In this document: positions 1-42,886 of the stretch, in pieces | How positions within the stretch are numbered: the first letter of the stretch is position 1 | How the letters are laid out: the number at the start of each line of letters is the position of its first letter | From: a virus | Lineage: Duplodnaviria > Caudoviricetes | Strand: one strand, 5' to 3' | Virus record (IMG/VR): IMGVR_UViG_3300037044_000005 | Location: 1-42,886 of that record | DNA: 42,886 nucleotides | Made by a program: the position numbers and the translations under genes | The notes under the pieces: model-generated | Databases searched by the model: none | What the model was told of the DNA's origin: nothing | Seen by the model: only the letters and a program-made list of their open reading frames with translations

Positions 1-124
1 AACGGCTACATTACCTGCGTGGTGGCGGGAGTAGAACCCGCTTCTGACGCTGATACTTCTGAGGCTGGGAAAATGCCGACCGAAGCCGCAGACTCCACCG
101 CGTCAGGTGCATGTTTTGTTAGGT
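1..124 (-). mobile_element. attC site of cassette L1 (continues across the contig end to 42878-42884)
   Basis: Minus strand reads ACCTAAC (R'', 124-118) AAAAC ATGCACCTGACGCGGTGG ... CCACCACGCAGGTAAT GTAGCC GTTGGGC. The R' box is completed only if the ends are joined through the AACGG overlap. Confidence 0.75.
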
Positions 125-260
125 GCGCCCAATTTGTACGCCACGCCCGTTTGCAACGATAACAACGAACATAATCACCACCAGGCTCACCGATATAGCC
201 ACACACAAGAAAACAAGTTTTCTTTTCACAATATGGACATTTCTGAAATTTATCTAACAT
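6..260 (-). CDS. cassette L1 hypothetical protein with CxxC Zn-ribbon motifs
   Basis: ORF starts just after the GTTAGGT core; CPYC and CYRC motifs; its C-terminal half is read through the attC. Confidence 0.65.
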   Translation of the reverse strand: MLDKFQKCPYCEKKTCFLVCGYIGEPGGDYVRCYRCKRAWRTNWAHLTKHAPDAVESAASVGIFPASEVSASEAGSTPATTQVM

Positions 261-267
261 GTAAGCA

Positions 268-314
268 CCTAACTATGATTTGGAGCAATTATTTGAGTCA
301 AATAATTTGCTAAT
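268..314 (-). repeat. 47-bp cassette-array head site (attI-like or half-attC), copy 1
   Basis: 46/47 identical, in inverted orientation, to 14256-14302; contains the palindrome AATTATTTGA-N-TCAAATAATT and ends in a GTTAGGT core. Confidence 0.85.
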
Positions 315-527
315 TGCTTCCAGTCCATAAAACAACACCATATCACCAAACGCCGATTTTGACATATTACACCTGTTTTGCATTTCAATAAACCTTTGCT
401 CTGCCTGTTTGGTGGTGTATATCATGACGCGGCGATTTCGCTTTAACTCATTGGGCTTCTTGGGAGCGCCTTGTTTGACGGCTCGCCTGTATCTGATGTT
501 TCCGATGGTGTGATAAGTGGATGCCAT
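273..527 (-). CDS. small putative ribbon-helix-helix DNA-binding protein
   Basis: GAPKKPNELKRNRRVMIY followed by two helices (MSKSAF); typical small phage RHH pattern. Confidence 0.5.
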   Translation of the reverse strand: MASTYHTIGNIRYRRAVKQGAPKKPNELKRNRRVMIYTTKQAEQRFIEMQNRCNMSKSAFGDMVLFYGLEAISKLFDSNNCSKS

Positions 528-569
528 AAGGATACGGGCGGGGCAGTTTCCTACCCCGCCGAGGGGGGA

Positions 570-1199
570 CTAGAACTGTGCAACTATCAGGCGAAGGTCT
601 TTATAGTTCGACTTCTCGCCTTTGTGTGCGCCTTGTGAAATGACGTATTCAGATCCCTTTGACCAGTATATAATACCGCTAACGCGGGGCTTCTGCGCTT
701 TTGTTACATCATACTCGCCGAGGGCTTGCAGCGCCTGAACAACGTTTTCATTTTTCCACTTATTGATTTTTGCCCCAACAGGGAAAGAGAGTCCATCTTT
801 GTGAAATGTGACTGACGCTTTGTTGTCGGGTTGCGGGATGATTTCAAAGAAGTCAAACTCATCCTTGAAAACTTCAATCCCCTCTGGCAGTCCTTCGGGT
901 AGCTCACTTGACGGGACTGGCTTATGCTCGAATTTTTTCTTTTCGCCATCAGTTGCGGCTTCGCGGCTTACTGGCTTGTCTGGGCGTTGGTATTCTGCGC
1001 GAAGTTGAGCGTATGCGTCAATTGCTGCTTTTGCAGTTTTGACGATTTTTTCAGCAGTTGAATTGTAGCGGCTGGTAATCTGGAATTTGACAGGCTCGCC
1101 GTTTACCTCAACGTCAATAAAAGCGTTGACGCTAACCTGCTGATCTACGGAGTAATTAAAGCTTGTGTTTGGAGTGACTGCCTGTGTAGGTTCGGTCAT
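570..1199 (-). CDS. hypothetical protein
   Basis: Long ORF; ATG at 1199 follows an AAAGGA RBS; GC hairpin downstream at 537-560. Confidence 0.75.
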   Translation of the reverse strand: MTEPTQAVTPNTSFNYSVDQQVSVNAFIDVEVNGEPVKFQITSRYNSTAEKIVKTAKAAIDAYAQLRAEYQRPDKPVSREAATDGEKKKFEHKPVPSSELPEGLPEGIEVFKDEFDFFEIIPQPDNKASVTFHKDGLSFPVGAKINKWKNENVVQALQALGEYDVTKAQKPRVSGIIYWSKGSEYVISQGAHKGEKSNYKDLRLIVAQF

Positions 1200-1256
1200 T
1201 TTCTTTTTTCCTTTTTGAGTTTGATTCCGCATTACGCGGGTGAATGTGCTGGCGTG

Positions 1257-1475
1257 CTAGGCGGGGTTAGCGGTTGCCTCCTTACACGTTTGACATTTTT
1301 CCCAATCACCAGCACAACAACCACAAACTTCGTATTTTTCTTGTGTGCTGTAGATTTGTCCTTCAAGTCTCTTGTCACCTGCGTCAGTTGCCATGTCCTT
1401 TGTTACATACTCAATCGGATAAGAGACTAAGACAATTCCGCGCACGCAGTTTTGACAGCCCATTACAAACTCCAT
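1257..1475 (-). CDS. small Cys-rich hypothetical protein
   Basis: CxxC motifs; overlaps the stop of the upstream gene. Confidence 0.55.
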   Translation of the reverse strand: MEFVMGCQNCVRGIVLVSYPIEYVTKDMATDAGDKRLEGQIYSTQEKYEVCGCCAGDWEKCQTCKEATANPA

Positions 1476-1876
1476 TCCATTGTTTGTTTGGTATCCGCGT
1501 CAAACTCCGCCTCGGCTATGGCGTCCGCTTGCCATGTTGATGCGGAATCAAGCCAGCGGGAATCATTCTCGATCTCTGCGGCTTGCGCGTCGGCTTCGCT
1601 GGGGGCTTCGAGGGCGGTTGCCTGTTCGATGGCGGTCATCTGCTCATCTGTAAGGCTCATCGGACAACCCGCCTCAACCCATTGGGAGCCAGTCAGTACG
1701 ACATTGGAAAAGTAAACCTTTTGCACGTTGGGGAAAACATGGGAGCGGATGAAGTCTTCGGAAGTGGCGCATTCGTTGTACCCGTCCACCCATCCTTGAG
1801 TAGATTTCCAAAATGAGAATAAATTGCCGCGCTCATCTGCGCCAGTGGTCAATACTGCGGGGGTGAATGTGGTCAT
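1463..1876 (-). CDS. hypothetical protein with acidic C-terminus
   Basis: ATG at 1876 after a GAGGAG RBS; part of the packed leftward operon. Confidence 0.65.
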   Translation of the reverse strand: MTTFTPAVLTTGADERGNLFSFWKSTQGWVDGYNECATSEDFIRSHVFPNVQKVYFSNVVLTGSQWVEAGCPMSLTDEQMTAIEQATALEAPSEADAQAAEIENDSRWLDSASTWQADAIAEAEFDADTKQTMEWSL

Positions 1877-1880
1877 TAGA

Positions 1881-2036
1881 TTACTCCTCTTCCTGTGCTT
1901 CCACAAGGGCTTCGATTGCCTTTGCGATTTGAGCCTCAGACAGTCCCATTGCCAACCCTGTTGCGCGGATTGTCTCTACCGTGATCTCGTTCGTCTCGCC
2001 AATTCTGCGGCCTATGATTTTCGGCTGGTCGGTCAT
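1881..2036 (-). CDS. 51-aa hypothetical protein (not in the ORF track)
   Basis: Reads MTDQPKIIGRRIG...EAQEEE; ATGA overlap with the upstream stop; GAGG RBS. Confidence 0.6.
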   Translation of the reverse strand: MTDQPKIIGRRIGETNEITVETIRATGLAMGLSEAQIAKAIEALVEAQEEE

Positions 2037-14260: not shown

Positions 14261-14302
14261 CAAATTATTTGAGTCAAATAATTGCTCCAAATCATAGTTA
14301 GG
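14256..14302 (+). repeat. 47-bp cassette-array head site, copy 2
   Basis: ATTAGCAAATTATTTGAGTCAAATAATTGCTCCAAATCATAGTTAGG; the GTTAGGC core is at 14297-14303. Confidence 0.85.
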
Positions 14303-14364: not shown

Positions 14365-14386
14365 TAGGTCAATCAAGGAGATTGAC

Positions 14387-28657: not shown

Positions 28658-28659
28658 AC

Positions 28660-29607
28660 ATGTCTCAACCTACTGGTTCATCCATTCAAGCCGTTGACCC
28701 CGTCCTCACAAACATGCTGCTCGGGTACATGCAGAATACTGACCGCTTTGTGGCGTCCAAAGTATTCCCGCAGGTAAGCGTCGACAAGAAAGGCTTTACT
28801 TATTACATCCTGACCAAGAAATATTGGTTCTTGGATGAGATCAAAAACCGCGCCCCAGGCGGAAAGTTTGCCCGCTCTGGTTATGGCGTTGAAAGCGCAA
28901 CGGGAGCCGCCCTGCTTTGGGGTTTGGAGCATCCGATTGCAGACGAAGACCGCGCCAACAACCAGATGCCGCTTTCCCTTGAACAGGCTGGCTTGCGCTG
29001 GCTTGCTCAGCAGTCCCTTATCCGTAAGGAACGCGCCTTCGCTTCTGATTTCATGGTCACTGGCGTTTGGGGAACTGATGACAACAACGCTACAACCGAC
29101 TGGGACGATTTCGCCAGCGGTGACCCCGTGAATGATGTTTTGACCGCCCGCCGCACAATCAGCAATAACACAGGTTACGACGGCAACAGCATGACCCTCG
29201 GTTACATCGTTCATCAGGCTCTTGTCAATCACCCCGACATTGTAGACCGTGTGAAATACGTTCAGACCGCCACAGTCGCAACCGTTGAATCGGCTCTCGC
29301 TGCTTCCTTCGGCGTGTCGAATTATTGGGTAGCAAAGGCTTCCTACAACAGCGCAAACGAAGGCCAGTCCATGACTGCCGCCGCTGTGATTGATGATGAC
29401 TGCCTTGTTTCCTATGTCACACCGACCCCTGGTGTTATGGATGCCTCCGCTGGTTACACCTTCTCATGGGATGGCGGCGGCGGACTTGGTTCTATCTCAC
29501 AGTACCACGAAGACCAGACAAAGAGTGATGTTTTGCAGCACTCCGAAGCCTGGGATCAGAAAGCTACCGCAACCGATTTGGGCTACTTCTTCGCCGACGT
29601 TGTGTAA
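28660..29607 (+). CDS. major capsid protein
   Basis: 315 aa; VDPVLTN...VFPQVSV N-terminus; position in the head operon. Confidence 0.85.
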   Translation: MSQPTGSSIQAVDPVLTNMLLGYMQNTDRFVASKVFPQVSVDKKGFTYYILTKKYWFLDEIKNRAPGGKFARSGYGVESATGAALLWGLEHPIADEDRANNQMPLSLEQAGLRWLAQQSLIRKERAFASDFMVTGVWGTDDNNATTDWDDFASGDPVNDVLTARRTISNNTGYDGNSMTLGYIVHQALVNHPDIVDRVKYVQTATVATVESALAASFGVSNYWVAKASYNSANEGQSMTAAAVIDDDCLVSYVTPTPGVMDASAGYTFSWDGGGGLGSISQYHEDQTKSDVLQHSEAWDQKATATDLGYFFADVV

Positions 29608-29619
29608 AGGAGATTAGCA

Positions 29620-29835
29620 ATGGCTGGTCATCCTCAATCATCCCCGCGTGGCTTTATCGCCCAAAAGCGCATTGATGTTGGTGCGTGGAGCATTACCGCG
29701 AACTCAACCGCGATTATTTTCCCCAACTCCATCCGCATCGGCTCAAAGGCTACCTACCTTTCGTCCAACAGTACGGGCGTGAAGTTGGGAAACCTGTACA
29801 TCTCGTGCAATAGCACGGGCAACACAACCACCTAA
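29620..29835 (+). CDS. small putative virion protein rich in N-S-T sequons
   Basis: AAGGAG RBS; three NST plus one NTT in 71 aa. Confidence 0.7.
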   Translation: MAGHPQSSPRGFIAQKRIDVGAWSITANSTAIIFPNSIRIGSKATYLSSNSTGVKLGNLYISCNSTGNTTT

Positions 29836-29914
29836 TGAATCTGAGGGCGGGCGGCGTACTCCGTTCCGCCCTCTCGTTCAACCCGAATATTCGGGAGAAA
29901 GCGCATGAGTACGC

Positions 29915-30763
29915 ATGGAAAAAGAATACAAAGGCTCTGTTTATATCGGCGTAGTCGGTAATGAGTTGGAAAACGGGCAGTGTCGTGACAGTATAGAAAA
30001 CATCACGCGCCGCAAGACAGACAGCCCGCCGATTTATGTAAGAGCTACGAAGGGCTACGAAGCCCGACAAATGCACCTTAACAACTGGTACGACAACACA
30101 AAGCACGCTTTTATTTTGCTTCTTGACCATGACATGATTTTTCAGCCTGATACGCTGGAGAGACTACGCAAGCATAAAAAGCCGTTCGTCTCTGGCTTTT
30201 ACATGCGCCGCACGTTTAATCCAGTAGCTCCCGTATGGTTTGAGCAAGGCGAAGCAGGAAAGATGCCGATGAAGCCGTTTACTTTCGTCCCTGAAAAGGA
30301 CAGGCTGTATCCCATTGGCGCGAGTGGCTGGGGTTGTATTCTCCTTCACCGTGATGTTGTTACAGAAACTCGCAAGCTATTGAAAGGCGAGCCTGACATT
30401 ATCGAAGATGACATGGACATTGCGCCCTATGACTTGCAAAAGATACTCAAGGCAATTGACAACCTTGCAGGCGATAAACCTAACCTAAAAGAATCGGTCA
30501 AGGTCTTACAGGAAGAAATCATCCCATTGCGGGGTGTAAAAGACCCAGTCGGCTCAGACATCCGCTTTCCTTTCTACGCTCGGCTGGCTGGCTTTCCTCT
30601 TTTGGGAGATAGCGGAGTGAATTGCGGGCATATCGTCAATTACCCGATAAAGATGGACGACTATATCAACCAGTCCGCCGCCACTGTTAGAAGTTTATCG
30701 GTAGCGATGCACGAAAGCCATACGCGAGAGATCGAGCGGCTGGAGAAAGCGAAAGCGCAATGA
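29915..30763 (+). CDS. GT-A fold (GT2-like) glycosyltransferase
   Basis: LLLDHD DxD motif, GWGCILL, GSDIRF and CGH. Confidence 0.8.
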   Translation: MEKEYKGSVYIGVVGNELENGQCRDSIENITRRKTDSPPIYVRATKGYEARQMHLNNWYDNTKHAFILLLDHDMIFQPDTLERLRKHKKPFVSGFYMRRTFNPVAPVWFEQGEAGKMPMKPFTFVPEKDRLYPIGASGWGCILLHRDVVTETRKLLKGEPDIIEDDMDIAPYDLQKILKAIDNLAGDKPNLKESVKVLQEEIIPLRGVKDPVGSDIRFPFYARLAGFPLLGDSGVNCGHIVNYPIKMDDYINQSAATVRSLSVAMHESHTREIERLEKAKAQ

Positions 30764-32334
30764 GATTGCACATTATCGAGCCGTATCACTCCGCTGCCAT
30801 GCGTCGAATGTCAGAGCCGCTTATCAAGGAACTGGAAAAGCTGTACGAAGTGACAACAGGCGAAGCGCCAGATGATGCCGCAGGCCTGAATTATCACATC
30901 CCCTGGCATTCGCTGGTTGGATATGAAAAGAAAGGCAAGCACGCGATTTCATACACTCACTGCAATGTCGGCAATGAAGCCGCATTGATGGACGCTTGCG
31001 AACGCGCCGACCTTATCACCTGCATGACCTTTCGCGGACGGGATGAACTTATTGAACTTGGTGTAGACCCGTCAAAGTTATGGGTTATCTACTCCGCCGC
31101 AGATCAATACTTTTTCAGAAAGCGCGTTATTGGGATTGTGGGTTATCCACAACCAAACGGACGCAAACGCGAGAGCCTTATTTTAGATTTGGCTTGGAGT
31201 TACGACCTGACGCCCTATCAGTTTTTATTTATCGGTGCAGGGTGGGACGATATGGTGACGCAGTTGCAGGGGCTTGGAGTTTCAGCCGCTACTTATCACG
31301 CCGAGACAGATGAGCTACTGCGGAATATGTATCACAAGATGGATTTACTTTTGGTAACAGGTTACCGCGAAGGCGGGCCATTACCGCTGATTGAGGCAAT
31401 GGCTTCAGGCTGTGACGTACTCTCGCCCCGCTTTGGATATGCCGCCGATTTATTGGAAGAAAGCCAACTCTATGACGACATGGCCGACTTAGCTGAGAAG
31501 TTAGACGCCTTAACCGCGCCATACATCCGCAACCATAAACTCGCCCGTGCCTGTACATGGATGGATTATTGTGCCGAACATGCTTTTATTTTCGGGCGGC
31601 TGATGGGTGAATCAGTAGACCTATATCCAGAGCGCGGAATGAGCCGATACGCTCAAGTGATGGATGTCATAGACCAGATGAAACCCTTTGGCATTGTCGA
31701 GGTCGGCACTTGGAGCGGCGCACGCGCAATCCAGATGATACAAACCGCCGCCAAACATAGACCAGCAGGTGAAATCGAGTATCAGGGATTTGACCTTTTC
31801 GAGCAGCAGACCGCCGAACAATTCAGGCGCGAGTTATCGAAAATCGGCTGGGATGAAGACATTGTTAGCAAGCGTATCAACGCCACTGGCGCAAATGTTG
31901 AACTTATCACGGGCGACACCAAAGAAACTCTTGGCAAAAACATAAACGACTTTGAAAGCATTGTTTATTTTGTAGATGGCGGGCATTCAGAAGAGACAAT
32001 TAGAAGCGATGGTGAAAACGTTTTAGAGGTTATGCAAAATAATTCTGTGGCCGTATTCGATGATTACTACCATGAAGGAAAGCCCGAAGGCATGGGGTGT
32101 AATGATTTTATCGACAACCTAGACCTTGATACTTTTGAAGTAGTCCATTTGCCCGCCCGCACCATTACGGCTGACGGGCGCAACATCGGAATGGTGAAAG
32201 TGAGACGAAATGCCAACATATATTTACAGCGACGGGAAGCACTCGCAGGAAGTAACACATTCCATGACAGAGAATCCGCCGATTGTCTGTCAAGTGTGCG
32301 GATTGAAAATGCACCGACGCCCGCAAATATTTAG
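30760..32334 (+). CDS. GT-B (GT4-like) glycosyltransferase fused to a class I SAM methyltransferase
   Basis: EGGPLPLIEAMASG; VEVGTWSG, FVDGGHS and VFDDY. Confidence 0.85.
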   Translation: MRLHIIEPYHSAAMRRMSEPLIKELEKLYEVTTGEAPDDAAGLNYHIPWHSLVGYEKKGKHAISYTHCNVGNEAALMDACERADLITCMTFRGRDELIELGVDPSKLWVIYSAADQYFFRKRVIGIVGYPQPNGRKRESLILDLAWSYDLTPYQFLFIGAGWDDMVTQLQGLGVSAATYHAETDELLRNMYHKMDLLLVTGYREGGPLPLIEAMASGCDVLSPRFGYAADLLEESQLYDDMADLAEKLDALTAPYIRNHKLARACTWMDYCAEHAFIFGRLMGESVDLYPERGMSRYAQVMDVIDQMKPFGIVEVGTWSGARAIQMIQTAAKHRPAGEIEYQGFDLFEQQTAEQFRRELSKIGWDEDIVSKRINATGANVELITGDTKETLGKNINDFESIVYFVDGGHSEETIRSDGENVLEVMQNNSVAVFDDYYHEGKPEGMGCNDFIDNLDLDTFEVVHLPARTITADGRNIGMVKVRRNANIYLQRREALAGSNTFHDRESADCLSSVRIENAPTPANI

Positions 32335-32455
32335 CGTCAATTGGAATGGGCTGCCTCCGCATCTAGCAGACGCAAGGCCGCCAGTCATTCAGAGCTTTAT
32401 AGATACCGCATCAGAGCGACGCGCCAAATACCTAGATACCGAAAGGAAGAAATAA
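32210..32455 (+). CDS. FmdB-like Zn-ribbon protein
   Basis: MPTYIY...CQVCG..MHR. Confidence 0.7.
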   Translation: MPTYIYSDGKHSQEVTHSMTENPPIVCQVCGLKMHRRPQIFSVNWNGLPPHLADARPPVIQSFIDTASERRAKYLDTERKK

Positions 32456-32456
32456 A

Positions 32457-32765
32457 ATGCCTAAGAAAATCGCAGTAGAGAACGAAGAAATCGAGAATGA
32501 AGCCCCCAGCGCTGGAAAACTTGTGGCTGCCGCAGAGTTTGAGATCATGCGCGGGTATCAGTCCGTTTCCTATAAAGAGGGCGATGAATTTCCCGTACCA
32601 GAAGGCTGGACTCGTGACGCCGCCTTTGAAGAATTCCGCAAAATCAACTTGAAGTCACAACCAAATACCATCGCGTTCCAAGTCCCCCTCCCGATTCTTG
32701 ATGAAAAAGGAAAGGTGAAATATATGGACGCTCGGCGCGTTGTTTTACCGCTCAAGGAGGTCTAA
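32457..32765 (+). CDS. hypothetical protein
   Basis: Packed ORF with RBS. Confidence 0.65.
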   Translation: MPKKIAVENEEIENEAPSAGKLVAAAEFEIMRGYQSVSYKEGDEFPVPEGWTRDAAFEEFRKINLKSQPNTIAFQVPLPILDEKGKVKYMDARRVVLPLKEV

Positions 32766-33070
32766 TGGCGAAGCGAAACATTCCCGCTGGTCTTGTGTCG
32801 GTTGGGTATCAAAAGATTACAACCAACTCCACAGCGACCACACTTAACTCCACCTGTATTGTCGGCAAAACTTTCCTTGTATCTGTGGAAACACAGAGCG
32901 CCCGCCTAACCTTTGACGGCACTACCCCCGCTGCAAGCACGGGCATTCTTTTGCTGGCGGCAAATTCCCCTTATTGGTTTGAGGGTATCAAGGGTTCGGA
33001 CATCAAAATCAAAGGCGCGGCGGTGGGTTGCGTTTTACAAGTACAGGCTTGGAAGTATAGAGGCGAATAA
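32765..33070 (+). CDS. putative small beta-rich virion protein
   Basis: AAGGAGG RBS; two NST sequons. Confidence 0.65.
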   Translation: MAKRNIPAGLVSVGYQKITTNSTATTLNSTCIVGKTFLVSVETQSARLTFDGTTPAASTGILLLAANSPYWFEGIKGSDIKIKGAAVGCVLQVQAWKYRGE

Positions 33071-33588
33071 TGGCACTCCGCGCCGATTCGTTTTCAAGCG
33101 TTGCCGAGGTTGTTGCATTTACCCGTCATTTGCTTGACGGGCAATCTACCTATAACTCCACCACGCGCCCAACAAGCACAGAGGTTGAAAAAATCATAGA
33201 CCGCGCCAGCGGTGTATTAAATACGGCGCTGGCGAACGAGGGCTTTTCTCCATCTTCCGTGTATGCCAATTCAACGGCGAAGCTGGCTTGTGACGACTGG
33301 GTAGCGCAAGAATCTGCAAAGCAAGTGGAGTTGACTCAGCGCGGCACGGGATATAGCGCCCGCGAAGAAAGCCGAATTGCCGCATTCAACATGAAACGCG
33401 GCTCCGCCTATGATTTTATATGTGAACAAAAACAAGGCTTCATCCGCCTGGGGATTGCACAAAGCTATAAGGCGTCCGATGGACTGGCGTTCACGGGTTT
33501 GGATGCTCAAAGCGTTCGCACCGACCCGACAGACACGAGCCTCGAACAGCCAAAGTTTACACGCGGACAATGGGACGATAACACATGA
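33070..33588 (+). CDS. putative head-tail adaptor
   Basis: Position; FSSVAEV...helical pattern. Confidence 0.55.
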   Translation: MALRADSFSSVAEVVAFTRHLLDGQSTYNSTTRPTSTEVEKIIDRASGVLNTALANEGFSPSSVYANSTAKLACDDWVAQESAKQVELTQRGTGYSAREESRIAAFNMKRGSAYDFICEQKQGFIRLGIAQSYKASDGLAFTGLDAQSVRTDPTDTSLEQPKFTRGQWDDNT

Positions 33589-34034
33589 GCGAAAGTGCGG
33601 GATTGACTCTCATAGAAACGCAAATAAAGGCGGTAACTAATTTCTCCGCCGATAACGTATCCATAGCGAAGTGGGGCATTTTGAACAGGGGGAAATCGAA
33701 TCACTATGCAATCATCCGCCCTGGCAAGGTCACGCGCACTGCCTTGACATTTAACGTTAAGGATAACGATTATCAGACCGTAATTGAGGTTTGGCAGCGA
33801 TACAAGGACGATGGCTCATCCATTACGGATTTACTAGGCCATGTGGACAACATCACAACCCGACTTGACCAGTACCGCAAGATAGCCGACACCACAAAAA
33901 CAATCCGCAACATGGACGCTGTGGAATACAGTGAAGTAAAAGAGCAATGGAATAAAGACGGTGGTGTGTCGTGGTTATCGCGTGACATTATCGTTCAGTG
34001 GCAGGAAGAGGAGGCCGTAACCTATGCAGAGTAA
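33585..34034 (+). CDS. putative tail terminator/completion protein
   Basis: 149 aa, upstream of the tail tube genes. Confidence 0.5.
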   Translation: MSESAGLTLIETQIKAVTNFSADNVSIAKWGILNRGKSNHYAIIRPGKVTRTALTFNVKDNDYQTVIEVWQRYKDDGSSITDLLGHVDNITTRLDQYRKIADTTKTIRNMDAVEYSEVKEQWNKDGGVSWLSRDIIVQWQEEEAVTYAE

Positions 34035-34215
34035 AGAACAACAAATTGAAAAACTGAAGAAACAGGTTAAGCGTTTTGAAGACAAGGGCTATTTAGACAC
34101 CGCCGCTCATCAAATGCTTGCAAATCTGCTGAAAGATTCCGATGAGGGCGTATCCCCCCGAAGCACCGAACAGGTGAAACAGGAGAACAAGAAAAATGGC
34201 AAACAAAATTTATAA
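34024..34215 (+). CDS. hypothetical protein
   Basis: GAGG RBS; overlaps both neighbours. Confidence 0.5.
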   Translation: MQSKEQQIEKLKKQVKRFEDKGYLDTAAHQMLANLLKDSDEGVSPRSTEQVKQENKKNGKQNL

Positions 34216-34630
34216 AGACATGCGAATCAAGATAGATAATGCCTCCGCTTCACTGACGGACATTACCTCTTATCTGTCTAGTGCTTCGCTCCGCGCCGTA
34301 CAAGACACGATTGAAGACACAAGCCTCGCAGATGGAAATCGCTCCTACCTGTTCGGTTTGGCAGGCGCTTCCATCCCATTATCAGGCATGGTCAACACAA
34401 CAACTGATGCCATCTTTGGGCCGCTGGTTGGCAATCGCACCACAGTGACGAAGACCATCGAATACCGCGCTTATCCGACCAACTCCACTGGCAGCGTAGG
34501 CCGTTTTTACAACGGCGAAGTTCTGATTACCTCGGTGGAATATTCGGGGAGCGTCAACAGCTTGGAAACGTTTAGCTGTGAAGCCGTTTTTGACGGCGCG
34601 GTGAATCGTACCTCAACGCAATTGGCATAG
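34196..34630 (+). CDS. tail tube protein, paralog 1
   Basis: IEDTSLAD..RSYLFGL pattern; upstream of chaperone and tape measure genes. Confidence 0.75.
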   Translation: MANKIYKDMRIKIDNASASLTDITSYLSSASLRAVQDTIEDTSLADGNRSYLFGLAGASIPLSGMVNTTTDAIFGPLVGNRTTVTKTIEYRAYPTNSTGSVGRFYNGEVLITSVEYSGSVNSLETFSCEAVFDGAVNRTSTQLA

Positions 34631-34637
34631 GTGAGAC

Positions 34638-35060
34638 ATGGCAAACAAAATTTATAAAGATATTACCGTGAAGGTAGACGCTCCGAATAGTACGGGGACG
34701 CTTGCGCTGGTAGACATCACTTCATATTTATCGAGCGCATCATTACGCTCGGTACAAGACACGATTGAAGACACAAGCCTCGCAGATGAAGAACGCTCTT
34801 ATTTGTTTGGACTAGCGGGCGCTTCCATTCCGCTGGCTGGAATGGTGAACACCACGACTGACAACGCCTTTGGTCCGTTGATCGGCAATCGCACCACCGC
34901 CACAAGAACAATTCAATACACCGCATACAGCGGGCGCGTGTATCGCGGCGAGGCTCTGATTACCTCGGTTGAATATTCGGGGAGTGTCAACTCTCTGCAA
35001 ACATTTAGCTCCGAGGCCGTTTTTGATGGAGCAATAACCCGCACTAGCGTTGCACTTTAG
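34638..35060 (+). CDS. tail tube protein, paralog 2
   Basis: Closely similar to the preceding ORF along its whole length. Confidence 0.75.
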   Translation: MANKIYKDITVKVDAPNSTGTLALVDITSYLSSASLRSVQDTIEDTSLADEERSYLFGLAGASIPLAGMVNTTTDNAFGPLIGNRTTATRTIQYTAYSGRVYRGEALITSVEYSGSVNSLQTFSSEAVFDGAITRTSVAL

Positions 35061-35078
35061 CAACAGAAAGTAGTACCT

Positions 35079-35372
35079 GTGGAATTTACAAAAGAAAATC
35101 CAAGCTGTATTTTCACCGTCCCTGACCGCCCTACCGTCCGTCAACAGATGGAATATTTCTCAGCAACAGCGGGCGCGGCTGGCTCACAGATTCTCACCCG
35201 TTACTGGCTCGGCGCAAAGGTGCTGATTCAGGATTGGAAGTGTGATGAATTACCGAAATTCGATGTTGACATAAACAGCATTGATAACCCATCTCAAACC
35301 GAGATAATGATTTGGGCGGCGATGCAGGTAAAAGCGCACATGGACGGGCTGGAAAACATCCCAAAAAACTAA
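35079..35372 (+). CDS. tail assembly chaperone (lambda G-like)
   Basis: Ends ATC CCA AAA AAC TAA, a slippery run at 35360-35369. Confidence 0.75.
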   Translation: MEFTKENPSCIFTVPDRPTVRQQMEYFSATAGAAGSQILTRYWLGAKVLIQDWKCDELPKFDVDINSIDNPSQTEIMIWAAMQVKAHMDGLENIPKN

Positions 35373-35644
35373 TTCAGGCGGTGGTGGATTATGCCTATGG
35401 GGAAGGCAACCCGCCGCCCGAATTGAAACTTTCCTGGCAGTGTGAAAGATACCACTGCCTTCCAGATGCAGGCGCGTACCTTGACCAGGATTATTGCCTG
35501 ATGGTTCGCATGACCGCATTCTCCAACATAAGCAGCGTTATCAACAAATGGAAGAACGTCAAGGGTAAGGACATTCATACGTTGACCGACTCAGACCGCC
35601 GCGTACTACGGGCACTTAAAGACATGGGAGTTATGTTTCTCTAA
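35363..35644 (+). CDS. tail assembly chaperone -1 frameshift extension (lambda T-like)
   Basis: -1 frame is open from the slippery site to the tape measure start. Confidence 0.7.
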   Translation, partial: KKLIQAVVDYAYGEGNPPPELKLSWQCERYHCLPDAGAYLDQDYCLMVRMTAFSNISSVINKWKNVKGKDIHTLTDSDRRVLRALKDMGVMFL

Positions 35645-37365
35645 TGGCAACCGTCGACATCATCATAAGAATGATAGACCAGACAGGGGGAGTGTCTAAT
35701 AAAACCGTTGCCAATCTAAAAGGCATGGCGACTACGCTTGCCACTGTCACGGCGGCGGCGGCAGCGGTGGGTATTGCCATAAAAAAAGCATTTGACCTCG
35801 GCAAAGAGGGGGCGATGCTTGAGTTTACGGCAACTAAGTTTGACCGCCTTTCCGAATCCATTGGCACTACTTCCGAAGCGTTGATGAAGGATTTGAAACA
35901 AGCGACAGGCGGGATTTATTCAGACATGGAATTAATGGCAAGCACAACCGACCTCGTCGGCTTGGGGCTTGCAAAGACGCACGATGAAGCGGTTCGGCTT
36001 GCGAAGGTTTCTGGCGGGCTGAATATGAACATGAATCAGTTGGTGCTTACCCTTACCAACATGACCACGATGCGCTTTGATGCTCTCGGCGTTTCCACTG
36101 ATGGTTTCAAAGAAAAAATAGCCGCGTTAGAAAAGCAGGGATATTCCACAAACGACGCATTCAAAGAGGCGTTTTTACAGCAAGCCGAAATGCAATTAGA
36201 AAAGGTGGGAAACGCCGCAGATACATCGGCGGGCGCTTTCATGCGTCTCGAAGCTCATATTAAAAATGTCGGGGATGAATCAAAGCGCAGTTTTTCTGCC
36301 GCGATGGCTCCTGCTATTGATAACTATATGGATCAGGTGGACAAGGCCAGCAAGCGCACCGAAGTCCTGTCTAAAGTAACAAACCTGACAAGCGAACAAA
36401 TCCGCCGCGCCTCCATGAGTAGCGCCGATTTTGCTCAAAACCTTGACAACTTAGTTAATGAATATATCCGCGCTGAAAACTACGGGCTGGCATGGGAAAA
36501 GGCGCTAGGGTTGACGAATCAGACAATAACGGAAGCCGCCGTAAATGTCGAAGCCTTATCAAAGGCAAACGAACAGCAATTAGATACCGCCATTCGACTC
36601 ACTGAGATGAACAGCGATTATGCCAAGTCCCAGCAGGATATTAAGGACGAAGTTGCTGAATTGATGGTTGAAAAAAGCAAGTTGTACGAGTGGGAAGTAG
36701 ACGACATCGAAACCATAAAAGGAAAAATCGACGAGCTTGACGCTGAATATAGCGAGAATGCCGAGAAACATAAAAAGCGGACGGATGCAATCCTGCTTGA
36801 TATGACGCTTGAAAAAATCGCCATGCTTGACGGCGTTGCTGGATTCAATGCAGCGGAAATGGAAAAGGCACTGGCGGTAGCGCAGACAATGGGTGCGGTG
36901 GAAGAAGCAGCGCTACGCGAGACACTAGCATTTGATGCGGTATCAACGGCGGTTGCGAATGGCACTGTAAAAATTCAGGACATGCAGCGCATTATCGAAT
37001 ACATGACGCAAAACGAGTGGACGGTGGAAGTAGCTGTACGGGTAAACGAGTTGGATCAGCTTCATGCGGCGCTTACTACTCAACAATCGAATGTATTCAA
37101 CGATTACGGCACGAGCGGAGATAGAAATCAGCACGCGGCGGGTGGGACTTTTCAGATTCCTATGTCCTATGGAAACGAAGGCTTCATGATGGGCGGCGGG
37201 GATTCTGCAAGCGGCGGGGAGCAATTGAAAATCATCCCGCGAGGTAGAGGTAATTCAGAAGAAAGAATGATTGCCCTGCTCGAACAGATTGCAAGCAAGC
37301 CGACCATTACCGCATACGCATTATCGCAGGCAGTGCGTGACGCGATTACAAGGGTGAGTAAATGA
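35644..37365 (+). CDS. tape measure protein
   Basis: 573 aa, Ala-rich and helical; follows the chaperones. Confidence 0.85.
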   Translation: MATVDIIIRMIDQTGGVSNKTVANLKGMATTLATVTAAAAAVGIAIKKAFDLGKEGAMLEFTATKFDRLSESIGTTSEALMKDLKQATGGIYSDMELMASTTDLVGLGLAKTHDEAVRLAKVSGGLNMNMNQLVLTLTNMTTMRFDALGVSTDGFKEKIAALEKQGYSTNDAFKEAFLQQAEMQLEKVGNAADTSAGAFMRLEAHIKNVGDESKRSFSAAMAPAIDNYMDQVDKASKRTEVLSKVTNLTSEQIRRASMSSADFAQNLDNLVNEYIRAENYGLAWEKALGLTNQTITEAAVNVEALSKANEQQLDTAIRLTEMNSDYAKSQQDIKDEVAELMVEKSKLYEWEVDDIETIKGKIDELDAEYSENAEKHKKRTDAILLDMTLEKIAMLDGVAGFNAAEMEKALAVAQTMGAVEEAALRETLAFDAVSTAVANGTVKIQDMQRIIEYMTQNEWTVEVAVRVNELDQLHAALTTQQSNVFNDYGTSGDRNQHAAGGTFQIPMSYGNEGFMMGGGDSASGGEQLKIIPRGRGNSEERMIALLEQIASKPTITAYALSQAVRDAITRVSK

Positions 37366-40247
37366 CAACCATTTTAATGGACATTTTTATCTATGTAGAC
37401 GGCGGCTGGACAAGCGTCTTAGCCGATACCCTTTCCGCAAGCGAGGCGTCTGCTGATTGGGGCATGGCTTCAAACAGGCCAGATGACAGAGTAGCAAAAA
37501 CAGGGACGCTTTCTTTCAGCCTGAAAAATCACACAGGCAAATACCTACCAGGCGGAGCGAGTGTCATCTCTGCGGATTGGGACAAAGGCACGAAAGTAAA
37601 AGTAGTATTCACCTTCAACGGGGAAAGTTGGGTACGCTTTTACGGCGTAGTGAATAAGCTGGACATCCTCAAGACGCCTAGCAATTCCGTTGTAAAAGTG
37701 TCGTGTGTGGACTGGCTGGACTACGCCGCAAAATATCCGCTGAGCAATCCCGCGATCCAGTTAGATAAAAGTATGGATGAAGTGATAACCACCGTCTTGG
37801 ACGCGATGCCAATTCCCCCACTGGCGCGGGATATTTCCACTGGCGTGAATGTGTTCCCTACCGTCTTTAACGATGCGTCTATGTTCACTTTGGGATTGTC
37901 TGAATTTTCAAAGATGGCAATTTCAGAGATGGGATACATATACGTCAAAAAAGATAAAACGTATGGCGAAACAATACGGGCAGAATCGGCGGCGTCCAGA
38001 GTTTTATCAACGCCTAGAAAACAAGTTGCCATATCGCAAGACCCAGGCTTTTTACTTCAAGAGAATGGCGATTTTCTTTTACAAGAGAACGGGGATAAAT
38101 TATTACTTGGTGGATACACCTTCGAGGACGTTGTTGTAAATAATAGCATGGAAGACATCGGCGTGGATTATGGCGAGAACCTGATAAACCGCCTAACCTT
38201 GACCGTCAACCCAACAAGAATCGACACAGTAGACACACAGCTTTATAGCATTGATTCACCCATCTACTTTGAGCCGTCGGCGGTGAAACAATTCAACGTA
38301 CAGTTTACAGAGCCGAACAGCAAACGACTTGTCGCAGCTTTACCGCCAGAGGACTCTTATCCTACCGCGCTATTGCATTTTGACGAAGCGGGAACAACTG
38401 GATTAATCTCGGACGATAGCGGGCGGGTGTGGTCAGACTTCGGCGTTGATCTGGTTTCCAATATCAAGTATCTAGGGTCACGAGCCGCATATTTTGACGG
38501 TAGTAATGCTTACGTCTATGCCCCCAGCGCGGACATATTCGAGTTTGGCAGTGATAACTTCACGGTGGAATGGTGGGAGTATCGCTTAGATGCGACGTCA
38601 GGTTATGCCACAATCCGCAGGAGCGACAGCGCAGGGTTCATCCCCTGGAAGTTTGGAGAGTCGGACGGTACAAACTCAAAGATTTACATCACGTCTAACG
38701 GCGCATCATGGGACATTGCCAACGGTAGGACGTTCGGAGCGATTGCAACACAGACATGGACACACTATTCAATCTGCCGAGTAGGAAATACTTTCTACGC
38801 CCGAAAGAACGGATTACTCACAGACACTTGGACTTCATCGGCAACGATTCTAGCTAGTACAGCCAGTTTGTATATCGGCGGCACCAGCACATGTATCAAC
38901 GCCATTATTGATGAGGTGCGGATTACCAAAGGCTTGGGGCGCTACGCCACGACATTCACCCCGCAGACAGAGCCTTACAGCCTGTCAGGTCTTATCTATT
39001 CCGCTTGGACAAATCGCGGCGGGGATGGCACGGAACTAACAGCGGATTTTGACATCACAGTTTCATACGGTGCGGCTGGCGCCACCCTGAACGTGACCAA
39101 CTCAGGCACGGTTGGCGGATGGCTCAATAATCTAAAGATATTCGGGAAGGTGGTAGAGAACACCAGTCCTATTTCAGACGTACAGGAAGACGCCGCCTCT
39201 ATTGCAAGATACAGCCACCATGAGTTGATTATCAATCAGGTGTACCAACAGGATTTCACGACAGGACGCGAGGAAGGCGCAAAGATTCTAGGGGAGAACA
39301 AGACGCCGCTTATCCGTGTAAATAATGTCACGATGAACGCGAATAAAAGCGAGGCACATACTCGCTACTTCCTAGAGACGGACGTGGGTGATGTGGTGAA
39401 AATCGTGGAGCCGACCACAGAAACCAATGCGGATTATTTCATTCAGGGTATGAACTGGAAGGCGTCGGCTGGAAATAACGGCGTGATTGTGGATTTTGGA
39501 TGGACGGTGAAGAAATTCCGCGAGGCTCTTTCCGCGCTGGCGATTCAGTTTGCAGACCTTACCACGAACGACAACTATCTAAACTTCGGGTATCAGGCGG
39601 CGGTATCTGCGGACAATGTGCCTTATCGGATTTGGTCGTACTGGTTCAAGTCCGCTCTATCCAGACAGGATGCCAGTCACATTACTACAAAAAGCGCCGC
39701 CGATGGGTCTGCTACTGGCAGGGGCTATACAATTTATACAGGTGCTACTGGGAGACTTTCTATTAATGCGAAATACGGAAATGTGATGAAGCAATGGAGA
39801 GCAGATAGCGCCATACCGAACGTTAACGACACATGGCATCACGTATTTATCGCCCATGATACCCGTTCCTCTGGCACGCCGATTATGTATGTCAACGGTT
39901 CTGCTGTAACGCCTTCTTTGATTTCCTCCACCACAACAGACAATGAGACTGAGGTGGGTACTGAGTTGAAAATCGGATACGGGGCACAAGACACCAGCAT
40001 GAAAGACATCCGCATTTACAACGGCGACCAGGTTGCCGACCCCGCAGCATTGGCGGTGGCTCTGTACGCTGAGACTCCATACGGGGATGCGAATACACGC
40101 GGCTTGTTATTCCGCACGTTCTACGCGCCAACAAACGAACTGGCAGATTACGAAGGCGATTACTTGACCGAAGACCAAAAGGTTTTTGATGACATCGGCT
40201 TTGCGGCGGGCACGCCAATAGATGACCCGCTCGGTGAAGCATTATAA
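37362..40247 (+). CDS. large tail tip/baseplate protein with LamG-like lectin domains
   Basis: LLHFD...FDG...FTVEWW...WTHYSI...IDEVRIT, and a second WHHVFI domain. Confidence 0.75.
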   Translation: MTTILMDIFIYVDGGWTSVLADTLSASEASADWGMASNRPDDRVAKTGTLSFSLKNHTGKYLPGGASVISADWDKGTKVKVVFTFNGESWVRFYGVVNKLDILKTPSNSVVKVSCVDWLDYAAKYPLSNPAIQLDKSMDEVITTVLDAMPIPPLARDISTGVNVFPTVFNDASMFTLGLSEFSKMAISEMGYIYVKKDKTYGETIRAESAASRVLSTPRKQVAISQDPGFLLQENGDFLLQENGDKLLLGGYTFEDVVVNNSMEDIGVDYGENLINRLTLTVNPTRIDTVDTQLYSIDSPIYFEPSAVKQFNVQFTEPNSKRLVAALPPEDSYPTALLHFDEAGTTGLISDDSGRVWSDFGVDLVSNIKYLGSRAAYFDGSNAYVYAPSADIFEFGSDNFTVEWWEYRLDATSGYATIRRSDSAGFIPWKFGESDGTNSKIYITSNGASWDIANGRTFGAIATQTWTHYSICRVGNTFYARKNGLLTDTWTSSATILASTASLYIGGTSTCINAIIDEVRITKGLGRYATTFTPQTEPYSLSGLIYSAWTNRGGDGTELTADFDITVSYGAAGATLNVTNSGTVGGWLNNLKIFGKVVENTSPISDVQEDAASIARYSHHELIINQVYQQDFTTGREEGAKILGENKTPLIRVNNVTMNANKSEAHTRYFLETDVGDVVKIVEPTTETNADYFIQGMNWKASAGNNGVIVDFGWTVKKFREALSALAIQFADLTTNDNYLNFGYQAAVSADNVPYRIWSYWFKSALSRQDASHITTKSAADGSATGRGYTIYTGATGRLSINAKYGNVMKQWRADSAIPNVNDTWHHVFIAHDTRSSGTPIMYVNGSAVTPSLISSTTTDNETEVGTELKIGYGAQDTSMKDIRIYNGDQVADPAALAVALYAETPYGDANTRGLLFRTFYAPTNELADYEGDYLTEDQKVFDDIGFAAGTPIDDPLGEAL

Positions 40248-40259
40248 GGAGATTTAGAA

Positions 40260-41024
40260 ATGGCTGATTCTGATATTAGTGGATTAACTGCAAACACTAC
40301 CCCCGCAGTGGGTGATTTACTGGCAATCGTTGACGACCCCGCAGGTTCAGCGGTAACTCAAAAAATTACCGCGTCCGATTTCCTGAAGGTTGTAAACGGA
40401 CTGACAGAGGATACAAGCCCCGATAACGCGGCGGATTTTCTTCTGTCCTACGATACAAGCGCAAGCGCGGCAAAGAAAGTCAAGCCTGAAAACATTGTAG
40501 TTAGTGGCGGCGGAAAAGGACGCGGGGAAATCCTGTCTTCGTCTGTGCCTTTGACGTTGGGCGCCCCGATTGGATTCATTGACAGCGGCTCATCCCCCGT
40601 TGATTCATTCCCCTACTTTGAGTTTGGGGATTCCGCGCTGGCGTATGTAGATTTTTATTGCCGATTGATGAATTATCAGGGCGGCGGGTTGACTGTTGAC
40701 TTTAACCTCTTGAGGACAACGGCGGCGGCGGCGGCTGGTTATTATTTTCAGGCTGCAATCCGCAGAATCGCTAATGCGTCGGATGATATTACCGCCTCAC
40801 ATACCTACGATTACAACAGTGTGACCGTCAACGTACCTGCTGGTCCGCCTGCGGCTGGTATTCCGATGGAAGGGACTATCACTTTCACAGACGGCGCGGA
40901 CATGGACAGCCTCGCGGATAATGAAATGTTCGTTTTACGTTTCAGACGCGACCCGACTCACGCAAACGATAACGCGGGTGATGCGGCGCGGGTGCTGGCT
41001 ACGATCACCATTCGGGAGACGTAA
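40260..41024 (+). CDS. tail fibre/receptor-binding-associated protein
   Basis: MADSDISGL..TP..GD...TQKIT N-terminal repeat; AAGGAG RBS. Confidence 0.6.
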   Translation: MADSDISGLTANTTPAVGDLLAIVDDPAGSAVTQKITASDFLKVVNGLTEDTSPDNAADFLLSYDTSASAAKKVKPENIVVSGGGKGRGEILSSSVPLTLGAPIGFIDSGSSPVDSFPYFEFGDSALAYVDFYCRLMNYQGGGLTVDFNLLRTTAAAAAGYYFQAAIRRIANASDDITASHTYDYNSVTVNVPAGPPAAGIPMEGTITFTDGADMDSLADNEMFVLRFRRDPTHANDNAGDAARVLATITIRET

Positions 41025-41026
41025 TC

Positions 41027-41701
41027 ATGGCTAGAGTATTTAACGGGTCAAGTCAGTATCTTTCTGCTTCATCGACTTTGCTTTCCAATGAGCCGATTGA
41101 TGTTGTTATGTTTGCAAACTCAGACACAACTACTGCGGCGCAGGTTGCCTTTTGTTTGGGGAACAATGGCGCAAGTGGTATGTACTCCATTTCATTTGAG
41201 GGTACTACGGGGGGCGACCCAATAAGAGGGCTGAAACAAAGTGACGCAGGCGCTAACGGTTTTGCAGATACTGCGTCCTATTCAGCCGCGACATGGTACG
41301 CAGTTTCCATGTCTTTAATATCTGATACGTCAAGAGCGATTTTTCTGAACGGAACAAAAACGGCGAATACAACCAACACCGCCGACCCCTCGCCCGACTT
41401 TATAACTATCGGGGCGTTACGGCGCTCATCTGTTGCCGCTTATTTTGATGGAAGTATATCTGAAACGTATATGCTTGATGTCAATATGTCAGACGCACAG
41501 CACGCTCTGGCTGGAAAAGGTATCTCCCCCTTCTGGCTTGTGCCTGGTAAGAACGTGCGGGCTTGGTATCCATTGCAGGGGCATAATAACAACAGGGTCA
41601 GGAACGGTTATCCTGACCTGTCTGCTACGGGAAGTCCTACTAATGGCACGCATCCTGCGCGGGTGATGCGTCCGAGGATAAATGGAGTTATGGCGGTGTA
41701 G
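41027..41701 (+). CDS. LamG/concanavalin-like tail protein
   Basis: FNGSSQYL...TWYAV...IGA...FDGSISE. Confidence 0.7.
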   Translation: MARVFNGSSQYLSASSTLLSNEPIDVVMFANSDTTTAAQVAFCLGNNGASGMYSISFEGTTGGDPIRGLKQSDAGANGFADTASYSAATWYAVSMSLISDTSRAIFLNGTKTANTTNTADPSPDFITIGALRRSSVAAYFDGSISETYMLDVNMSDAQHALAGKGISPFWLVPGKNVRAWYPLQGHNNNRVRNGYPDLSATGSPTNGTHPARVMRPRINGVMAV

Positions 41702-41885
41702 CGGCTTGTACGAGCGTCCGCCCAACGGTTTGCGTTAGGCGGCATTGACGTTTGCCAAAATATTTATAATGGCATTTAGGACACATGTAAATTTTTTTAT
41801 CTCCGCCAGATGCTAACTTTACATTGACGAGAATCGTATTTTCACTTTCGCAAGGGATGCCTCCCCAATACATTTCACATTTCAC
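41688..41885 (-). CDS. cassette L5 small Cys-rich protein
   Basis: GTG start after GAGG; CPKC motif. Confidence 0.55.
   Translation of the reverse strand: MKCEMYWGGIPCESENTILVNVKLASGGDKKIYMCPKCHYKYFGKRQCRLTQTVGRTLVQAATPP
41720..41740 (-). mobile_element. collapsed 21-bp attC remnant
   Basis: Minus strand reads GCCTAAC-GCAAACC-GTTGGGC. Confidence 0.7.
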
Positions 41886-41915
41886 TTTGCCTCACTTTCT
41901 CGTTGAGCGAGAGCC

Positions 41916-42033
41916 GCCCAATGGTTTGCTTTACCTGCCTGCGGCGGTCACAGCCAAGTAAACCGAGCCAACATATAAAGCGAATAAAATTACCGCCTGC
42001 CCAAAGCAGGTCAGGTGCAAGCGTGTGTTAGGT
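41916..42033 (-). mobile_element. attC site (118 bp; R' is ATTGGGC)
   Basis: ACCTAAC-ACACGC-TTGCACCTGACCTGC ... GCAGGCAGGTAAAGC-AAACC-ATTGGGC. Confidence 0.8.
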
Positions 42034-42161
42034 GGCGTCACATCTTCCAAAGTACCACCGAACATATCACGATAATCTTTCGCCGTTTGCTCATCCATTG
42101 GGACTGACTTCGCCCCATCTGGATAAATGACACGAAACTTTTTATATCTAGCAAAGAACAT
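41931..42161 (-). CDS. cassette L4 protein
   Basis: GGAGG RBS; the hydrophobic C-terminus is encoded inside the attC. Confidence 0.65.
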   Translation of the reverse strand: MFFARYKKFRVIYPDGAKSVPMDEQTAKDYRDMFGGTLEDVTPPNTRLHLTCFGQAVILFALYVGSVYLAVTAAGR

Positions 42162-42176
42162 AAATACCTCCGAGCC

Positions 42177-42268
42177 ACCTAACGGTTGGCGTTAGCGGTT
42201 GGCGGGTTGCGCCAGACTCGCTAATTTTTCGGACGAGTCCAGCCAATCCGCTGCACGCTTTGTTAGAC
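42177..42268 (-). mobile_element. attC site (92 bp)
   Basis: GTCTAAC-AAAGC-GTGCAGCGGATTGGC ... GCCAACCGCTAACGC-CAACC-GTTAGGT. Confidence 0.88.
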
Positions 42269-42272
42269 CCCG

Positions 42273-42596
42273 TTACCGACTTACAGATACTTCGGCGTCG
42301 GGATTTTCTTCGCAAGAGGCAAGATACTCTTGCACAAAAGATACAAGACCTTCGTAAGTTCCCCATCCATTTTCAGGATTGAATTTCTTGAAACGCTCAG
42401 GGTCGCTTTTGAGAAGTTCGAGACCAGCACGCAACGGCTCAATGAGTTGTTCGGCTTTGGTAATTTCAATTTCATCGGGTCGCCAAAGGTGCTTATAGAT
42501 ACCCGCCTCATCAGCCATTTTATTGAGGTTATGGGTGATATTTGCGCTATGTACCGTAGTGGGGCGAACAGCACGGAGATAAACATCGAGTGACAT
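42273..42596 (-). CDS. cassette L3 phage-type hypothetical protein
   Basis: AAAGGA RBS; NITHNL...NPENGWGTY motif; stops 5 nt before R''. Confidence 0.8.
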   Translation of the reverse strand: MSLDVYLRAVRPTTVHSANITHNLNKMADEAGIYKHLWRPDEIEITKAEQLIEPLRAGLELLKSDPERFKKFNPENGWGTYEGLVSFVQEYLASCEENPDAEVSVSR

Positions 42597-42629
42597 ATTT
42601 TTCCTTTCACACTGCCAAGCAAGGCAGGG

Positions 42630-42751
42630 GTCTAACGGTTATGCTTTACCTGCGCGCTTTGCGCTACGCTTTTCGATACGCCACGCACGTTTACGATAAG
42701 GCTTCTTTCTTGGCGCGGGCTTCAAAGCGTCAGGTGCAAGCTGGGTTGGGC
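42630..42751 (-). mobile_element. attC site (122 bp)
   Basis: GCCCAAC-CCAGC-TTGCACCTGACGC ... GCGCAGGTAAAGC-ATAACC-GTTAGAC. Confidence 0.82.
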
Positions 42752-42854
42752 GGCTGAGAAATTCAATGCCAGCCATGCAGATTTCTTGGTGATGCTCATG
42801 GCAGTAATGGAAACACGTGCGCTCTTTGCCACAATCTTTTTTTTCACACTTCAT
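42639..42854 (-). CDS. cassette L2 small Cys/His-rich protein
   Basis: AAGGAG RBS after the core site; the basic tail is encoded inside the attC. Confidence 0.65.
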   Translation of the reverse strand: MKCEKKDCGKERTCFHYCHEHHQEICMAGIEFLSRPTQLAPDALKPAPRKKPYRKRAWRIEKRSAKRAGKA

Positions 42855-42886
42855 AATTTCTCCTTGTTGAGCAGTCCGCCCAACGG

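Follow-up and report, generated by a model that had tools for sequence, protein, structure and literature searches.

The window analysed in this work is the whole 42,886-nucleotide (nt) sequence of the IMG/VR virus record IMGVR_UViG_3300037044_000005 (Duplodnaviria; Caudoviricetes), a tailed phage that carries two arrays of integron-type gene cassettes. An earlier note on this DNA had proposed that the phage borrows the integron integrase (IntI) of its host. The window arrays are likely recombined in trans by an integron integrase from elsewhere, and this part of the proposal is well supported because no recombinase of its own was recognised in the phage and a cassette-sized polymorphism lies at the crossover point of one of its attC sites. 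A chromosomal IntI of an Anaerolineales host is probably the donor, a part of the proposal that two attI-like docks in the phage favour.

A polymorphism at the crossover point

The window phage is present in two public sequencing runs, X1 and X2, of groundwater origin and possibly its source sample. In both runs a 55-nt unitig covers positions 1-30 and 42857-42886 as a direct end-start join with a 5-nt overlap, the first 5 bases of the window being the same as its last 5. Because this unitig joins end to start in both runs, the window is a closed circular genome of 42.9 kb despite its IMG/VR class "linear" and a CheckV completeness of 53%, and the earlier impression that the genome looks complete was correct. 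Both runs also contain a 328-nt unitig, whose two ends are those of the 55-nt one and which is longer by 273 bases. The depths in the two runs were 57.4 and 78.2 for the short form, 51.4 and 58.6 for the long form, and 112.3 and 143.8 for the main unitig, so that the two forms of the join add up to the main depth and the long form accounts for 47% and 43% of it. Since both unitigs keep 1-30 and 42857-42886 whole, the exchange is confined to the 5 nt that hold the G/TT crossover of attC A1, the site of the first cassette of array A; both forms retain the whole right arm of this site and the start of cassette A2. At a threshold of 2%, no other variants were among those listed over 1-18000 and 24000-42886, and the stretch between 18000 and 24000 lies within one unbroken 34,327-nt unitig. 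We infer that a cassette was recently lost or gained by attC × attC recombination. The 273 nt are the only extra DNA seen and are too short to encode an IntI.

The insert is not a copy of cassette A1, A2 or B2: among the rows listed, only its terminal 30 nt map to the window, and the main unitig is unbroken. A junction-pattern search for the long form gave no match in viral contigs, and five matches in metagenomes proved to be other molecules with an A1-type attC. No inversion joint between the inverted docks was among the variants listed, which is no proof of absence, as contigs drop rare variants. Unitigs of 813/845 and 947 nt in X1/X2 have low depth and are bounded by similar attC ends; the 813/845-nt unitig has both ends as in cassette A3 and a different cargo.

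No recognisable recombinase in the closed genome

In the 86 open reading frames (ORFs) of the genome, no catalytic family of recombinases or transposases was found with Pfam or PHROGs, and none of 21 window ORFs matched a recombinase in NCBIfam, whose sole matches related to insertion sequences were sub-cut-off ones to a zinc-ribbon of 30 amino acids (aa) at the N-terminus of an exonuclease. Six-frame searches of the window with stop read-through, using PF00589, TIGR02249, PF00239 and PF07508, gave no match at E ≤ 10, whereas the controls were detected. A sensitive profile was built from 102 IntI sequences and run with --max over 1661 six-frame segments; its best E value in the window was 2.1, whereas the IntI of G002, the closest full-length relative, scored 1e-102. 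A scan of the window for the motif HxxRH/HxLRH gave no match, no remnant of intI was found in it by tblastn with the 102 queries (best E 0.012), and look-ups in a protein atlas returned no recombinase family. The statement of the earlier note that no ORF encodes an integrase, serine recombinase or transposase is thus borne out by the Pfam, PHROGs, NCBIfam, six-frame and IntI-profile searches, and the case that it had raised against itself, a phage ORF that turns out to be the recombinase, did not arise, as no such ORF was found.

Cassette arrays and attC sites

Array A, with five cassettes, is read on the minus strand and runs from 273 across the circular join to 41720; array B, with two, occupies 14297 to 15670 and is read on the plus strand. 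Together they contain six full attC sites and one truncated site: four full and one truncated in about 1.4 kb of array A, and two in 0.4 kb of array B. Clusters of attC sites lacking integron integrases (CALINs) are defined by at least two attC sites within 3 kb (PMC9892861). With no integron integrase nearby in the closed genome, the window arrays are CALINs, and as there is no intI gene they are not complete integrons.

The attC sites were detected with a custom finder, a grammar tuned on the window sites and used in place of IntegronFinder or the HattCI covariance models; it recovered 5/5 full sites inside the window, the sixth spanning the join, and gave one match in 20 shuffles. The sites show the expected R'' and R' cores, L boxes with an extra base and a bottom-strand hairpin, with long stems in all six full sites and unpaired R boxes in three of the six predicted folds. 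Folding energies of the bottom strands are modestly unusual (z -0.1 to -2.9). Between the R'' boxes and the 5' ends of their own cassettes, 66/70 positions are complementary, as compared with 48 between R'' and the R' box of the same site, and only 6/5040 permutations score as well. From these patterns the cassettes are judged to be real, end complementarity being the strongest test and folding energy a weaker one. Support for the predicted sites as substrates of IntI is indirect only and comes from this complementarity and from the polymorphism at G/TT.

In array A (all minus strand), attC A1 (1..124) is 128 nt long, its last four bases lying across the join at 42881-42878, and the cassette A1 gene (6..260) encodes a Cys-rich protein of 84 aa and reads 119 nt into this site. 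Cassette A2 (42630..42881, 248 base pairs [bp]) holds ORF 42639-42854 (71 aa), which reads 113 nt into the attC at 42751-42630. In A3 (42177..42636, 453 bp), ORF 42273-42596 (107 aa, phrog_4019) ends before the attC at 42268-42177. A4 (41916..42183, 261 bp) carries ORF 41931-42161 (76 aa), with a hydrophobic stretch coded inside its attC (42033-41916), and the R' core of this site is changed from GTT to ATT. The array ends with A5 (41720..41922, 196 bp), with the zinc-ribbon-like ORF 41742-41885 and an attC truncated to 21 nt (41740-41720) that abuts a tail gene. In array B (plus strand), B1 (14297..15396, 1093 bp) is composite, with ORFs 14387-14671, 14662-14865 and 15124-15381, an attC at 15305-15396, a promoter-like site at 14336-14364 and a likely attC relic near 15037-15099. 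The array ends with B2 (15390..15670, 274 bp), in which ORF 15426-15644 (72 aa) has a Cys motif coded inside the attC at 15543-15670.

Five of the six genes with a full attC extend 77-119 nt into it. Across loci, such read-through was seen in 94/137 viral cassettes vs 8/32 in host-labelled loci, and 6 of these 8 come from two contigs with phage-like arrays. The cargo genes encode 47-107 aa and are small, Cys-rich, ribbon-helix-helix-like (by eye) or hydrophobic; scans with Pfam, PHROGs, NCBIfam and PADLOC gave no resistance hit, and PADLOC no defence hit, in agreement with the earlier description of the cargo as phage accessory genes rather than resistance genes. The A3 gene has 5188 homologues, and because 0/80 viral ones are followed by an attC of the window type, it is judged to be an ordinary gene of phages that has taken cassette form in the window phage. 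Two DNA methyltransferases and a DUF4326 gene that stand alone in the window phage have cassette-borne homologues in other phages. Other phage arrays have been reported with their genes in reversed orientation; the window genes instead face as in host cassettes.

Duplicated attI-like docks

Each array is headed by one copy of a 47-nt attI-like site that ends exactly at G/TT. Dock A (268..314, minus strand) has its crossover after the G at 273 and overlaps the stop codon of ORF 273-527; it consists of a palindrome, an L-box-like heptamer, a 5-nt spacer and an R box, and is a 98% inverted copy of dock B (14256..14302, plus strand), which has its crossover after the G at 14297. The R boxes of the docks are complementary to the R'' box of the first attC at 9/10 positions (dock A with A1) and 10/10 positions (dock B with B1). 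By position, duplication and resemblance to host attI, the docks are putative attI sites, best called attI-like. The integron reading of the earlier note is right about the cassettes and had overlooked these duplicated docks. No exact match to the dock sequence was found in viral contigs. In a scan for a Pc promoter, dock A contained a match at 9/12 positions and B1 one at 10/12; shuffled sequences gave similar counts. By eye, the window docks and the heads of loci L076, L086, L115, L123 and L126 show a palindrome immediately before the L box that differs by lineage; the dock palindromes are possibly accessory integrase or repressor sites.

According to the available text of PMC2095811, attI is integrase-specific and attC promiscuous, which makes the docks the part that is informative about the donor. 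The docks were ranked by the attI-matrix scores of the 1346 GTT sites in the window. With a matrix of 9 Anaerolineales chromosomal attI candidates they rank 1st of 1346, and 0-1 of 300 column-shuffled matrices did as well; with the pooled matrix of 21 host attI candidates they rank 1st-3rd, and with one made from the 8 attI sites linked to phage intI genes 46th-446th. On these small training sets, the dock sequence favours an IntI of the host, as the probable partner, over one of the phage clade described below, as an improbable one.

Probable host

The window attC pattern was found in 51 viral stretches and in 22 GTDB stretches, of which 10 are titled Chloroflexota, including 4/4 on contigs of >100 kb. 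Furthermore, attC A1 shares 71-74% identity, across some 112 nt, with attC sites on Anaerolineales chromosomes, one of these sites lying beside intI in genome G082, and 5/5 organism-named homologues of the endolysin among 120 listed are from Anaerolineae. In X1 and X2, the ends of unitigs at depth 8-17 match, by eye, the Anaerolineales chromosomal attC family. These matches point to Anaerolineales as the probable host. An IntI over the cut-off is encoded in 99/301 Anaerolineales genomes, so that the probable host order is not a lineage that lacks intI, the second case that the earlier note had raised against itself. SOS control, which it had mentioned for many intI genes, is not supported here: of GAAC-N4-GTTC and CTGT-N8-ACAG, which we take to be LexA-type boxes, the former lies upstream of 2/29 host intI genes (0.1 expected) and the latter of 0/29.

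One Anaerolineales chromosomal array (L072, 16 attC) contains a phage-style cassette of 286 bp, with a 107-nt attC and a read-through gene, among long host cassettes with a 130-nt attC; a phage-to-host transfer is possible.

Integron integrases carried by phages

Among attC-bearing viral records, IntI over the cut-off was found in 5/45, in 3/13 near-complete ones and in 1/9 with terminal repeats; 10/13 near-complete records have none. An alignment search gave 148 viral stretches with IntI relatives, of which 80 were fetched. In a FastTree of 102 IntIs, from which four refetched records and identical sequences had been dropped, a mostly viral clade of 21 (support 0.995) stands apart from 31 chromosomal ones, the latter being mostly best-scoring hits, which is a bias of that set. 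One member of the clade is in an Anaerolineales assembly. The clade includes L129, L130, L133, L139, L180, L186 and L191, with G038, G049, G050, G056 and G059 as clade mates. Members that were checked have intI in the orientation of their cassettes, with attI at or shortly after the intI stop codon (0-13 nt behind in 8 cases). G038, G049 and G050 have a terminase together with head or tail genes, and are thus tailed phages, and also encode a separate phage-type integrase. The terminase family phrog_2 was found in 1/5 IntI-bearing records, and a PHROG scan of 38 long ORFs found terminases of another family in 3/3 records scanned.

The intI of G002 sits among its arrays, and a 449-nt cassette is 95% identical between this IntI-positive genome and the IntI-negative, terminal-repeat-complete G019. 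The genome of another relative, G005, bears terminal repeats; it contains an array whose dock is similar, and lacks a tyrosine recombinase. In G002, the divergent IntI-like gene and an Xer-like integrase gene (L032:859-1908 and L032:4899-5828) both begin within about 10 bases of the R' box of an attC site, which would suit terminal cassettes or places where the arrays landed. That the whole phage is one giant cassette in G002 was excluded, because the array of G002 continues across the contig ends as well. A single cassette of G002 (L033 around 11018-11460) separates the terminase gene from the portal gene, and its insertion site does not resemble the docks.

Probable source of the integrase

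Several findings weigh against the host as donor, or against recombination by a foreign IntI altogether. The polymorphism cannot name the donor, because any IntI can perform attC × attC recombination; the 273-nt insert is known by its length and ends, an attC of its own being presumed, and both runs may be the source sample, and they and the assembly are not independent evidence. With a matrix of only the 12 newly found host dock candidates, the docks come 29th-66th; at least 3 of the 12 look spurious. G002, whose capsid is 87% identical and which is the closest full-length relative, itself encodes an IntI-like protein (257.9 bits vs a cut-off of 265). No cassette body common to host and phage arrays was found among 224 compared, the 7 of the window being unmatched. 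The mutated core of attC A4 and the truncation of A5 are signs of decay. CRISPR (clustered regularly interspaced short palindromic repeats) spacers, through which the earlier note had hoped to find the host, gave no match to 1-20000 or 22900-42886 in 401 genomes, with two candidates scored per genome, and a prophage search found a capsid homologue in 0/401 genomes. The host's own IntI is therefore the favoured donor rather than a demonstrated one, because neither spacer nor prophage pins the host and related phages carry IntI.

This last point introduces a rival that the earlier note had missed, since G002 and temperate phages of the same attC family encode their own IntI: the integrase may be provided in trans by a resident prophage or a co-infecting temperate phage of the same host group. 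The IntI of 5/45 attC-bearing viral records (three of them with tailed-phage genes), the 21-member clade with its representative in an Anaerolineales assembly, and the 449-nt cassette common to G002 and G019 are all consistent with such a donor. However, the phage-intI attI matrix ranks the docks only 46th-446th, and chromosomal IntI is probably available more often, because it is common in the order; a phage donor is accordingly considered unlikely, though it is the strongest of the alternatives. Less probable still is an ancestor that had intI, built the arrays and then lost the gene, the arrays being relics and the 273 nt the result of homologous or microhomology recombination. The intI among the arrays of G002, the decayed sites of the window (A4, A5 and the relic in B1) and the listing of intI loss among CALIN origins in the available text of PMC8618304 would fit this history, but the exchange occurred within 5 nt at an IntI-type cut and not elsewhere in the homologous attC arms, the population has no further variant among those listed, no intI remnant was found, and the docks are intact and 98% identical.

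An unrecognised phage protein, either a novel recombinase or an annealing protein, that moves the cassettes is very improbable. Many ORFs have no family, the structure checks left out the 273-aa ORF 20654-21475 and other long ORFs, and the single-sequence model of ORF 2723-3412 (predicted local distance difference test [pLDDT] 42) was too poor for a structure search. Yet the anatomy of the sites is of the IntI type, chromosomal attC sites beside intI are among their homologues, the 209-aa ORF upstream of array A (570-1232) has a predicted fold (pLDDT 82) weakly like OB-fold single-stranded DNA-binding proteins (best E 0.11), and ORF 8570-9151 resembles small viral DNA-binding-type proteins. 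That the contig is a fragment, with intI in the missing part, is suggested by the IMG/VR and CheckV labels, but it is largely refuted and hardly credible, as the unitigs join end to start directly or via 273 nt and CheckV scores the terminal-repeat relative G005 at only 49%.

With recombination by the host IntI as the preferred reading, the bottom strands of attC would fold during phage replication, the host IntI would add or remove a cassette by attC × attC recombination, which would give rise to the polymorphism, and it would insert new cassettes at the host-type docks. The cassettes would be drawn from a pool common to phages of the Anaerolineales host group, and SOS induction is not required. 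In a wider form, for which the chances seem about even, Anaerolineales phages would run an integron economy of their own, with host-type docks as a standing device, IntI exploited during infection and phage genes in cassettes with attC-coded tails; a separate temperate clade would carry its own intI, and the 273-nt polymorphism would be a move caught in the act.

The carrier phage

With Pfam and PHROGs, the carrier shows terminase, portal, capsid, tail, primase and helicase-like genes and a GH25 endolysin; the virion module (terminase, portal, capsid and tail), at 23047..41701 on the plus strand, identifies it as a tailed phage. Family scans with Pfam and PHROGs recognised no partition gene in the window, no RNA dataset is among those listed as containing the phage, and array A had no match in a collection of cultured phages. 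A tRNA-like stretch lies at 3870-4060, with an Rfam tRNA match at 3957-4024 (36.1 bits), adjoining T-loop-like motifs seen by eye and no call by ARAGORN. Tandem paralogues of the tail tube (34196-35060, 74-83% DNA identity) are also tandem in G002, G003 and G005. The capsid gene is immediately followed by a glycosyltransferase-like gene and a glycosyltransferase-methyltransferase fusion (29915-32334), which are kept in relatives and have a possible function in virion modification.

Relation to known systems

Integrase-less attC clusters in phages are already known: Qi, Rajabal, Ghaly, Tetu and Gillings (2023) described 17 phage CALINs, of which IntI1 recombined 5/6 tested sites in E. coli, and suggested illegitimate capture (PMC9892861). 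What is added here are the duplicated host-type docks, the cut-point polymorphism in an otherwise uniform population and the phage IntI clade as a rival donor. In literature listings that mostly cover work outside subscription journals, no published phage IntI clade or natural cassette turnover was found, and the available text of PMC9176274 contains nothing on cassette-borne integrases. Laboratory recombination of phage attC has been published, whereas natural cassette turnover in integrase-less phages has not, as judged from the literature examined. A clonal population that is split at the crossover point makes such turnover testable from existing reads, and the docks together with two candidate IntI clades allow a clean test of specificity. 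If the proposed mechanism holds, integron recombination has a place among the sources of phage mosaicism, and the breaks at arrays and low completeness scores of such phage contigs find an explanation.

The chromosomal integrons of Anaerolineales resemble the window arrays in attC family, gene orientation and the left arm of attI, but host cassettes are longer than viral ones (median 739 vs 399 nt) and host genes mostly end before R''. Bacterial CALINs are attC clusters without intI, according to the available text of Cury et al. 2016 (10.1101/030866), and that of PMC8618304 attributes them to an IntI acting from elsewhere or to the loss of intI. The window arrays share this structure and these possible origins, and differ, as far as those texts go, in their phage carrier, their attI-like docks and an integrase from another replicon or organism. 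The phage CALINs of PMC9892861 likewise consist of co-oriented, attC-bounded cassettes without intI in virulent or uncharacterised phages, and DNA methyltransferase cassettes are frequent in relatives as they are there; no Chloroflexota terms were found in the available part of the supplement of that study. No population-level turnover was reported in it, whereas the window phage shows a polymorphism at the cut point, and the sole attI noted there at the head of a CALIN belongs to a cryptic prophage of Shewanella, next to a complete integron. In contrast to those CALINs, the window phage has two matching docks that head separate arrays, a cargo of phage genes, and coding sequences that run through attC in five of six cases.

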